Below, in pieces: positions 34,506 through 36,433 of a DNA stretch of 64,000 bases (its first letter is position 1; each line of letters starts with the position of its first letter). The notes beneath the pieces are model-generated. The model did no database searches. It saw only the letters and a list, made by a program, of their open reading frames with translations, and had not been told where the DNA came from. This DNA comes from Eledone cirrhosa (Eukaryota), in the NCBI GenBank assembly GCA_964016885.1, contig OZ024743.1:54436001-54500000 (forward strand), written 5' to 3'. Made by a program: the position numbers and the translations under genes.

Positions 34506-35090
34506 TACTAGATTGTAATGTATATTATACTATAGTATCATATCCAGCAATGTGTTAGATGTAGTGTAGTTTAATATTGCATTAAAGTATAGTATATTAT
34601 ACAGCGTACTCTAATGGTAAGAAACTCTCAGGAGAGAAGAAATCCCACTCTTGTAGTGTAGTTTAATATTGTACTAATGTGTAGTATATTATATAGTGTA
34701 CTGTATAATATACTATATATATATAGAATAACTATGAAGCTTGTTTCCTTCCTTCTACGGTTAGCTCTACTCTTTGTTGTTATCCTGTCTCACTCGCTTT
34801 ACGCGTTTTAATTGTCCTAATAACTTAATTTAGTTATTATTGCACCGACGTGAGGTATATGATTTTTAATGCAATGAAATATCTATGATCGTCGGCAAAT
34901 CACTGATGAGGGACTTATTTTATTACATGTTATCCATGTGCTACCAGCAGTATTTTTCTCCCCATTTTATCATATATATATATATATATATATATATATA
35001 TATATATATATATATATACATTATGAAGAGAGAAGAAACATTTAGATATAATTAGTAATAAAATGTATCATACCTAAACTGTTCCTAAAT

Positions 35091-35178
35091 TCCTCGACTA
35101 CGTAGTTTCGTGGCATAAACAAAAACAATATATCAAAGATATAGAGTCCTTGCGAGGTCTGCCGACTTATCAAGAGGA
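35091..35178 (-). ncRNA. Hammerhead ribozyme, U3-A8 core variant
   Basis: tcctc-TTGATAA-gtcggca/long loop/tgccac-GAAA-ctacgtag-TC-gagga. Confidence 0.75.
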
Positions 35179-35681
35179 TACCTCATTTTACTAGTCTCAA
35201 GAACGCGTCTATACGACGTGAGAAAAAATCCCAAAAGGCGGAGGGGGAGATAGTCACGCGATATAACGGTCGAGAAACAGAGCTAAGCCTCTTATAACCA
35301 CGAAGAAAATACCACGGAGGCGGAGGGGGTATTCATATCGAGGCCGTAGAAGAGGTAGTGAAGAAGGCGAGAAGTATGAGTAATGGAAGCTTTCCAGTTG
35401 TCCCCACACCTCAAAGATTGCTCGACCAGAGGGAGTTATTAATATATTTAGAAACACACAGATACATGCGGACGCACACATATATACATGAACGCATCCG
35501 CACCCAACTGTGAGTTAAGGGTGCCAACTTCACCGATGTTGCTCAATGAATGACTGGGACAGACCAATTCAGTTTGAACCAGACTGAACCAGTATCAGAG
35601 TTAAAAATACATTATGAAGAGAGAAGAAACATTTAGATATAATTAGTAATAAAATGTATCATACCTAAACTGTTCCTAAAT

Positions 35682-35769
35682 TCCTCGACTACGTAGTTTC
35701 GTGGCATAAACAAAAACAATATATCAAAGATATAGAGTCCTTGCGAGGTCTGCCGACTTATCAAGAGGA
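35682..35769 (-). ncRNA. Hammerhead ribozyme, U3-A8 core variant (second copy)
   Basis: Identical to 35091-35178. Confidence 0.75.
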
Positions 35770-36433
35770 TACCTCATTTTACTAGTCTCAAGAACGCGTC
35801 TATACGACGTGAGAAAAAATCCCAAAAGGCGGAGGGGGAGATAGTCACGCGATATAACGGTCGAGAAACAGAGCTAAGCCTCTTATAACCACGAAGAAAA
35901 TACCACGGAGGCGGAGGGGGTATTCATATCGAGGCCGTAGAAGAGGTAGTGAAGAAGGCGAGAAGTATGAGTAATGGAAGCTTTCCAGTTGTCCCCACAC
36001 CTCAAAGATTGCTCGACCAGAGGGAGTTATTAATATATTTAGAAACACACAGATACATGCGGACGCACACATATATACATGAACGCATCCGCACCCAACT
36101 GTGAGATATATATATATATATATATATATATATATATATATATATATATATATATATGTATATGTATATATATATATATATATATATATATATATATATA
36201 TATATATAGTATATTAGATATAGTATATTAATATATATATATATTAGATATAGTATATAGTATATTAGATATAGTATATTAATATATATATATATTAGAA
36301 AGTGAGGGTTTTTTTACAAAATGAAAAATAACCGAGGTGTCCTTCACGAGTGAAAGTAGAAAGAAAAAGAGATGAAATCGAAAATGCAACTGGAGTCTTA
36401 TTTTTTTTAAAATATATATATATTTATTTGGTT

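Follow-up and report, generated by a model that had tools for sequence, protein, structure and literature searches.

The question raised by this locus is how about 1.09 kb of DNA with no recognisable coding sequence came to be written nearly twice over, head to tail, into a (TA)n microsatellite of Eledone cirrhosa, and what part its hammerhead motifs may have had in the event. The window, by which we mean the whole 64-kb stretch of DNA that was analysed, is animal DNA rich in LINE, SINE and microsatellite sequence and contains no N. The longest exact match at an offset of 591 nt extends over 499 of 499 positions without a mismatch (Table 1) and is the longest exact complex repeat of the window, the next measuring 275, 149 and 136 nt. 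Its two copies are separated by 92 bp of complex sequence present once, and the insertion as a whole amounts to 1.84 head-to-tail units of a 591-nt monomer. Since the last three bases (TAT) are common to the element and the microsatellite, the size of the element is 1087-1090 bp; a target duplication is unreadable inside (TA)n. The first-pass annotation had described two identical 499-bp copies with a unique 92-bp spacer and (TA)n on both sides, which is confirmed, and had likened the arrangement to the partial-tandem (pLTR) geometry of Penelope-like elements (PLEs), which the 1.84 head-to-tail units support. A BLAST search of the window returned no further copy of the 591-nt unit.

Table 1. 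Positions of the insertion, its parts, its predicted structures and its immediate neighbours in the window.
Feature	Position	Strand	Basis or remark
Whole insertion, non-coding, 1.84 units	35016..36105	-	repeat match; 0 Pfam families, 11/11 frames
Upstream (5') repeat, pLTR-like, 499 bp; 419 nt ahead of own cut site	35607..36105	-	
Spacer, single-copy part of unit; predicted hairpins	35515..35606	-	local z -3.1 to -5.1, minus strand
Downstream (3') repeat, 499 bp, identical to upstream repeat	35016..35514	-	
(TA)n target tract, pure, at element 3' end; TAT in common with element end	34972..35018	.	
(TA)n tract at element 5' end; about 50 nt pure, then degenerate	36106..36295	.	
Hammerhead motif 1 (type I, U3-A8); cut predicted between 35687 and 35686	35682..35769	-	
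Hammerhead motif 2 (type I), identical to motif 1; cut predicted between 35096 and 35095	35091..35178	-	
Stem III palindrome of motif 1, 10 nt	35688..35697	-	self-duplex -12.9 kcal/mol, hairpin +1.5
Stem III palindrome of motif 2, 10 nt	35097..35106	-	
Predicted 591-nt monomer between cut sites, 41.8% GC	35096..35686	-	
Predicted tail hairpin over palindrome, cut site and 3' stem I arm; ends at insertion 3' end	35017..35104	-	parameter-dependent
Second occurrence of predicted tail hairpin	35608..35695	-	
Predicted hairpin spanning spacer/repeat junction	35500..35524	-	-11.9 kcal/mol
Unrelated solo element with U3-A8 hammerhead, core 36467, cut after 36438, 6-nt palindrome, 142-nt tail	36296..36680	-	5' boundary approximate

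Each repeat carries, on the minus strand, one type I hammerhead motif with a U3-A8 core and a GUC cut site. The motif comprises stem I (UCCUC/GAGGA), the core UUGAUAA, a 57-nt stem II region closed by G10.1-C11.1, GAAA, the insert CUACGUAG and GUC, after which the cut is predicted; stem I stops at 5 bp, the next position being an A-A mismatch. The sequence agrees with the conserved hammerhead core (N3-UGA-N-N8-A, GAAA, UH) and has a Watson-Crick pair at 3-8. The cores start at 35764 and 35173 and the predicted cuts, after 35687 and 35096, are likewise 591 nt apart, in support of the earlier proposal that a 591-nt unit lies between them, and the U3-A8 hammerhead claimed for each copy is borne out as a motif (UUGAUAA, GAAA, GUC). 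Two details required revision. The stem III palindrome, given as 8 nt, is of 10 nt, because A15.1 and U16.1 belong to it, and the distance of about 75 nt between motif and 3' end is correct for the end of stem I (75 nt) but not for the second cut, which lies 80 nt from the 3' end of the insertion, or 77 nt without the common TAT. When the ribozyme domain is folded in isolation, the pairing probability is 0.78-0.89 for stem I, 0.91-0.93 for the core of stem II and 0.16 for its two basal pairs. A strict hammerhead descriptor gave six matches in the window against a mean of 0.03 (maximum 1) in 60 block-wise dinucleotide shuffles, an excess somewhat flattered because the descriptor was written after the candidates were known. 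No hammerhead family of Rfam reached its gathering score in the window and none was among the 23 matches at E <=10 between 34900 and 36300, a miss which the long stem II and the U3-A8 pair may explain; the matches to microRNA families in Rfam were dismissed as TA-repeat noise.

The coding content of the element is quickly described. The longest frame inside the 591-nt unit is of 86 aa, for which a comparison with 36 candidates gave no homologue among longer proteins at E <=1 (weak evidence), and 11 of 11 reading frames tested from the element were devoid of Pfam families. Similarly, a Pfam search of 167 of the 176 complex frames of at least 55 aa (from 488 frames in the window), together with nine shorter frames of the element, returned no GIY-YIG domain; the Pfam matches in the window were confined to pieces of LINE-type reverse transcriptase (RT) far from the element and to weak low-complexity matches. 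Prokaryotic genomes, phages and plasmids yielded no DNA relatives, as expected for an animal repeat. In the absence of an open reading frame for a telomerase-like RT and a GIY-YIG endonuclease, or of a remnant of either, the element is therefore not an autonomous PLE.

What, then, is it? We consider it to be a PLE-mobilised, non-autonomous derivative, that is, a non-LTR retrozyme, with a probability of about 85%. The geometry, the identity of the repeats, the motif, the absence of coding remnants and the (TA)n flanks, on which this assignment draws, are matters of observation. On the PLE side stand the partial tandem (pLTR), a 3' end 80 nt past a sense-strand hammerhead and the (TA)n target; on the retrozyme side, the non-coding sequence, a GC content of 41.8% (below 50%) and two complete motifs at a period of 591 nt, the second unit being partial. 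PLE copies may in addition carry an optional tail of 30-40 bp, which gives them two alternative 3' ends, and may retain a spliceosomal intron in the pLTR. The element falls within the broad definition of non-LTR retrozymes given by Li et al., who also admit minimal hammerhead motifs as retrozyme ribozymes (bioRxiv 10.64898/2026.07.22.740005), and its monomer is by prediction highly self-paired. It falls outside the narrower type of Cervera and de la Pena (2020), since that type has a canonical ribozyme with loop 1-loop 2 contacts, whereas here stem I is of 5 bp and the stem II region of 57 nt. As to the helper, the combination of a hammerhead with a (TA)n target points to a PLE of the Hydra or Neptune type rather than to a Naiad (PMC8557442).

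Whether the ribozymes could act on their own is a matter of RNA folding, for which we relied on secondary-structure predictions that take no account of magnesium, tertiary contacts or protein. In the isolated ribozyme a monomeric stem III costs +1.5 kcal/mol, as against -12.9 kcal/mol for the 10-bp duplex of two palindromes, and when two ribozyme domains are linked the fold of lowest energy is the active dimer (-54.5 versus -42.5 kcal/mol for two monomers). The ribozyme is thus predicted to need a partner and to work as a dimer via its 10-nt palindrome. The suggestion that the two palindromes pair in cis as a dimer accordingly holds for the isolated ribozymes, where it is 12 kcal/mol the better fold, but not for the native flanks. 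In the native transcript the cis-dimer is topologically possible, but the free fold is the more stable by 3.8-17.4 kcal/mol under each of the 12 conditions tried, which combined three sets of parameters, two temperatures and the transcript at full length or shortened; over two monomer ribozymes in the same flanks its advantage is 8.1-19.7 kcal/mol. In the full-element ensemble the probability of palindrome-palindrome pairing is 0.00, because local helices cover the palindrome and stem I. Nor was a co-transcriptional window for the monomeric ribozyme detected, the probability of stem I being 0.0 at 15 of 15 prefix lengths and 8 of 8 local lengths. Since the active folds are disfavoured in the native transcript, spontaneous release of the monomer is doubtful without the help of a protein.

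A candidate for the structure that closes the ribozyme is its own tail. Under the Turner 2004 parameters the palindrome and the 3' arm of stem I are taken up in a helix with the final bases of the repeat, the C of the cut site being bulged; by this prediction the 80-nt tail turns back on palindrome and cut site and keeps the ribozyme shut. In the 591-nt circle the probability of stem I does not exceed 0.007 in six of six conditions; the tail-over-palindrome helix itself is strong in three of the six, partial in one and largely replaced by other helices in two. The tail fold has a z-score of -4.8, and its coverage of the cut region is equalled by seven of 100 tail shuffles. A general rule that the tail blocks the ribozyme was dropped, the same behaviour being seen in only two of the six other motifs in the window.

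The strong folding of the 591-nt unit is a property of one strand. As a circle the 591-nt unit has a z-score of -5.8, with 62% of its bases paired and none of 40 shuffles as good, and as a line it has the same z; the opposite strand gives -1.4, and background folds (15 of the 34 eligible windows, both strands, eight shuffles each; n=30) go no lower than -3.43, with a median of -0.29. The excess of structure is for the most part confined to the surroundings of the cut site and to the 280 nt that follow the cut, and does not extend over the whole circle. A predicted hairpin also spans the junction of spacer and repeat, and because the 5' end of the upstream repeat cuts through the sequence of this hairpin, spacer and repeat look like one continuous unit.

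Within the repeat there is, in addition, an internal duplication of about 40 nt, its members 82 nt apart (35237, 35319, 35828, 35910), with a GC-box-like 10-mer that occurs nowhere else in the window and is possibly part of a promoter. Each repeat contains two GC-box-like words and an 81-nt intron-like stretch with splice-like words, features that do not enter the argument. A bacterial promoter scan, a method inapplicable to animal DNA, gave results at chance level.

How old is the insertion? The absence of differences at 499 sites bounds the divergence of the repeats at 0.6% (95%), and with an Octopus clock of 0.09 per 25 million years (PMC13282606) the insertion would be younger than about 0.8 million years, if the rate in the host is similar to that in Octopus. 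The statement of the first-pass annotation that identity implies recent activity goes too far, as the figure of 0/499 bounds divergence and does not show activity of the family: the identity of the repeats gives the age of a single insertion, may be restored by gene conversion and is no proof of present activity.

The focal motifs do not stand alone. The window contains eight hammerhead motifs, the two focal ones and six solo motifs at 20694 (+), 21982 (+), 22403 (-, decayed), 36467 (-), 43435 (+) and 57426 (+). In five of the six a microsatellite is reached about 125-145 nt past the cut, that at 20694 (+) meeting one only at 293 nt; for ordinary positions of the window, (TA)8 is found within 160 nt downstream in about 12-13%. 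The focal unit has no detectable similarity to the six other motif-bearing regions (scores of 17-23 versus shuffle maxima of 28-31), and the focal element is distinct only by its two retained ribozymes and their perfect identity.

Several of these neighbours deserve description in their own right. The solo element at the right (Table 1) lies across the right-hand TA tract on the same strand as the focal element and is preceded by a near-perfect 60-nt hairpin (36477-36536). To the left, a two-copy repeat (34715-34971, +, and 40200-40435, -; 77% alike, both ending at (TA)n) is the immediate neighbour, and three TA-associated elements thus share one tract. A CTGA-N-GA word in this left-flank repeat was rejected as a hammerhead for want of a matching stem II and GAAA. 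Another hammerhead family has three copies, 73-84% alike, at 20572-20893 (+), 21860-22168 (+) and 22223-22412 (-), the last inverted, with a decayed core, and standing tail to tail with the second across a microsatellite. Two solo C3-G8 hammerhead elements, 43427-43620 (+) and 57357-57616 (+), terminate at (TA)n, respectively 132 and 145 nt beyond the cut. Five hammerhead elements of three otherwise unalignable families have an apparently shared two-part tail motif (at 20804, 22079, 43540 and 57531 on the plus strand and 22287 on the minus strand), which could be a helper-binding signal and is absent in that form from the focal unit. Short hairpin-ended repeats adjoin microsatellites at 8643-8778, 20902-21031, 27256-27469, 28336-28472 and 57025-57200, twice beside hammerhead elements. 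A nested repeat complex (51404-54780) includes a 1450-bp self-inverted block of 95.6% identity and a 37-bp minisatellite, and the strict scan detected no hammerhead in it. Broken copies of LINE-type retrotransposons with RT matches lie at 734-5933 (-) and 24308-25081 (+); for a LINE RT of the window the best match with a named source was to a shrimp, at 60%. In addition, an abundant SINE-like family, 70-93% alike, is represented at 36782-36899 and at, for example, 2014, 16386, 19396, 20170, 29259 and 50765.

By what route could the insertion have arisen? The full sequence of steps that we put forward tentatively, at somewhat short of even odds, is copying by an RT acting in trans from a circular 591-nt RNA into (TA)n. 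The minus strand would be transcribed through both motifs, and a helper, probably a PLE protein as in the case of PAc, the Poseidon element of the anole (Anolis carolinensis), which needs protein for cleavage by its ribozyme (PMC11167929), would let the two motifs dimerise and cut. A host ligase of the RtcB type would then close the 591-nt piece, which would refold into a shut and stable form. The GIY-YIG endonuclease of the helper would nick (TA)n, and some 80 nt beyond the cut, where the tail hairpin has its foot, reverse transcription would begin, perhaps with the help of the shared TAT. Finally, the RT would cross the rejoined cut site and run for 1.84 rounds, writing 499 nt twice. For the start of this copying there is a precedent in PAc, where the RT starts past the cut, in a stem-loop, at an AT-rich target (PMC11167929); from it we infer that a PLE protein acted in trans and began target-primed reverse transcription at the tail foot. 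Moreover, the insertion reaches 80 nt beyond the second cut, and the template must therefore have been intact there, either uncut or rejoined.

It is on this last alternative that the main rival turns, namely that the template was the uncut linear transcript of a longer tandem donor, in which case the class of the element would be the same, the ribozymes would be shut bystanders and no circle would be involved. The strand-specific shut fold, the same 499 nt written twice, the circles documented for animal retrozymes and the five solo motifs that also meet a microsatellite within about 125-145 nt of the cut favour the circle. Against it count the disfavoured active folds, which also speak for the uncut transcript, an excess of structure that does not extend all round the circle, and the tail shuffles that equal the coverage of the cut region. 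Published work points the same way: PAc inserts for the most part from RNA left uncut, and its mutants with a dead ribozyme insert normally, the ribozyme being dispensable in vitro (Frangieh et al. 2024, PMC11167929); motifs of the PLE type are poor cleavers even in dimeric form (PMC4209133); of nine frog retrozyme dimers one cut in vitro (bioRxiv 10.64898/2026.07.22.740005); and the Hydra rows are C3-G8 (PMC8557442). Naiad PLEs form partial tandems without canonical hammerheads (PMC8557442), and this geometry thus needs no circle. PAc also binds its own RNA downstream of the cut (PMC11167929), where the structure of the focal unit is concentrated. The uncut transcript, however, requires a donor with more than two near-identical units and leaves a motif that keeps a perfect core and palindrome. 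The two routes are inseparable by sequence alone, and we regard the uncut template as a real possibility with the odds leaning against it. Neither a helper PLE nor a second locus of the family was found in the 64-kb window or in the consensus files of one paper.

The remaining explanations dispense with a self-spreading family or with retrotransposition altogether. The pLTR-x-pLTR layout, the single locus in the window and the frequency there of solo PLE-type ends would suit a one-off autonomous PLE that retained two 499-bp pLTRs and lost its ORF by internal deletion. We think this distinctly unlikely, as the 11 frames contain no Pfam family and the longest has no match among longer proteins (weak evidence), and as the spacer takes part in the strand-specific structure and in the junction-spanning hairpin. 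An assembly artefact, or a local duplication or conversion at the level of DNA, is very improbable. Assemblies often fail in microsatellites, in which both ends of the element sit, and perfect identity of the copies would be expected of such an error. Yet the sequence has no N, the complex 92-bp spacer is present once and is tied structurally to the repeat by the predicted junction hairpin, and the element has 1.84 periods, not two, whereas a plain tandem duplication should span both periods in full, 1182 bp instead of 1090; a longer array may have collapsed, but collapse under-counts units rather than inventing them.

Within the circle route a more far-reaching reading may be entertained, although as it stands we deem it unlikely. 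The tail would be a switch of two states, which when folded shuts the ribozyme and presents the start for the RT and when opened by the helper protein frees the palindrome for dimer cleavage, and the 591-nt circle would be the sole source of new copies of more than a unit. The 3' repeat would be unusable because (TA)n follows it, if the RT needs sequence beyond its start as that of PAc does, and the 5' repeat would yield only solo copies of at most 499 bp. If true, such a switch would give the PLE hammerhead a needed role, and with this element one could directly test whether PLE pseudo-LTRs arise by a rolling circle, an idea proposed long ago and unproven.

As a sequence class the focal element is ordinary. 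Hammerheads of the PLE type number in the thousands in animal genomes, and dimeric PLE hammerheads have reportedly been treated by Lunse et al. The U3-A8 pair, the palindromic stem III, dimer cleavage, the tandem layout and a proposed circular intermediate are already published (PMC4209133; review PMC6765202), as is the targeting of (TA)n by PLEs (PMC8557442). A literature search, directed largely to papers outside subscription, found no report of retrozymes in cephalopods and, at the level of listings, none of a PLE tail that shuts its own ribozyme. Ribozymes blocked by self-pairing are known from plant retrozymes and viroids and are said to be rare among animal retrozymes (PMC7229834); in a PLE tail such blocking is apparently a new point, as a prediction from folding. 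The value of the element is that of a clean test object, being short, protein-free and with repeats unmutated relative to each other. It bears on the role in PLEs of the hammerhead, a motif that PAc can do without in vitro and that Naiads lack, and the predictions drawn from it are sharp: a product of 591 nt, cleavage after GUC, rescue when the tail is removed and a start of reverse transcription near +77 to +80.

It remains to set the element beside the systems that it resembles. Like animal non-LTR retrozymes, it consists of non-coding tandem units with a type I hammerhead in each, a GC content below 50% and a monomer predicted to be self-paired; its 591-nt unit is inside the range of 51-972 bp given by Li et al. 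2026 (bioRxiv 10.64898/2026.07.22.740005) and above the 150-450 bp of Cervera and de la Pena 2020 (PMC7229834). It differs from them in having only 1.84 units and a non-canonical ribozyme (5-bp stem I without extension, 57-nt stem II, U3-A8). Animal retrozymes descend from pLTRs (bioRxiv 10.64898/2026.07.22.740005) and are cut, ligated by RtcB and accumulated as circles, most of which are predicted with a free ribozyme (PMC7229834), whereas the focal circle is predicted with a shut one. With the hammerheads of PLE pLTRs, for which Cervera and de la Pena (2014, PMC4209133) describe U3-A8 covariation and about 1,300 matches in Schistosoma mansoni, the focal motif shares the short stem I, the long stem II, G10.1-C11.1, the palindromic stem III, U3-A8 and the requirement for a dimer; it differs in the lack of an ORF between the repeats, in a stem II region of 57 nt as against 7-8 bp and in its 10-nt palindrome.

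Among autonomous PLEs, those of the Hydra clade have (TA)n as their target and a hammerhead on the sense strand close to the 3' end (Craig et al. 2021, PMC8557442). In the rows of File S2 of that paper the stem III region is of 9-10 nt in 26 of 26 (focal: 10) and the core C3-G8 in 26 of 26, and the element ends, derived by hand for 14 rows, lie 36-153 nt past the cut. The focal element resembles them in its target, in a sense hammerhead shortly before the 3' end and in the length of the stem III region; unlike it, they encode RT and GIY-YIG and are C3-G8 rather than U3-A8. A motif look-up in the consensus files of the same paper did not find the focal motifs, and the 3' end of Hydra-1_Obim appears by eye to be unrelated. 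In PAc the RT starts 111-118 nt into the ORF and the cut is at 26, which places the start 85-92 nt past the cut, and RNA sequence beyond the start is needed (PMC11167929). The likeness to PAc thus lies in an RT start past the ribozyme cut and in a stem-loop, in the AT-rich target and in a ribozyme inactive without protein, for the focal element by prediction; PAc, however, is autonomous, has an ORF that begins inside the ribozyme and belongs to another clade with another sequence. Finally, plant LTR retrozymes and hammerhead viroids likewise have two ribozyme-bearing direct repeats around a unique middle, and in their circles a complementary stretch blocks the ribozyme (PMC7229834), as is predicted for the focal one. 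Assignment to the plant type was nevertheless rejected, the focal motif being of type I and its target a microsatellite, whereas plant LTR retrozymes have type III hammerheads, Ty3/gypsy LTRs, a PBS, a PPT and a 4-bp target duplication.
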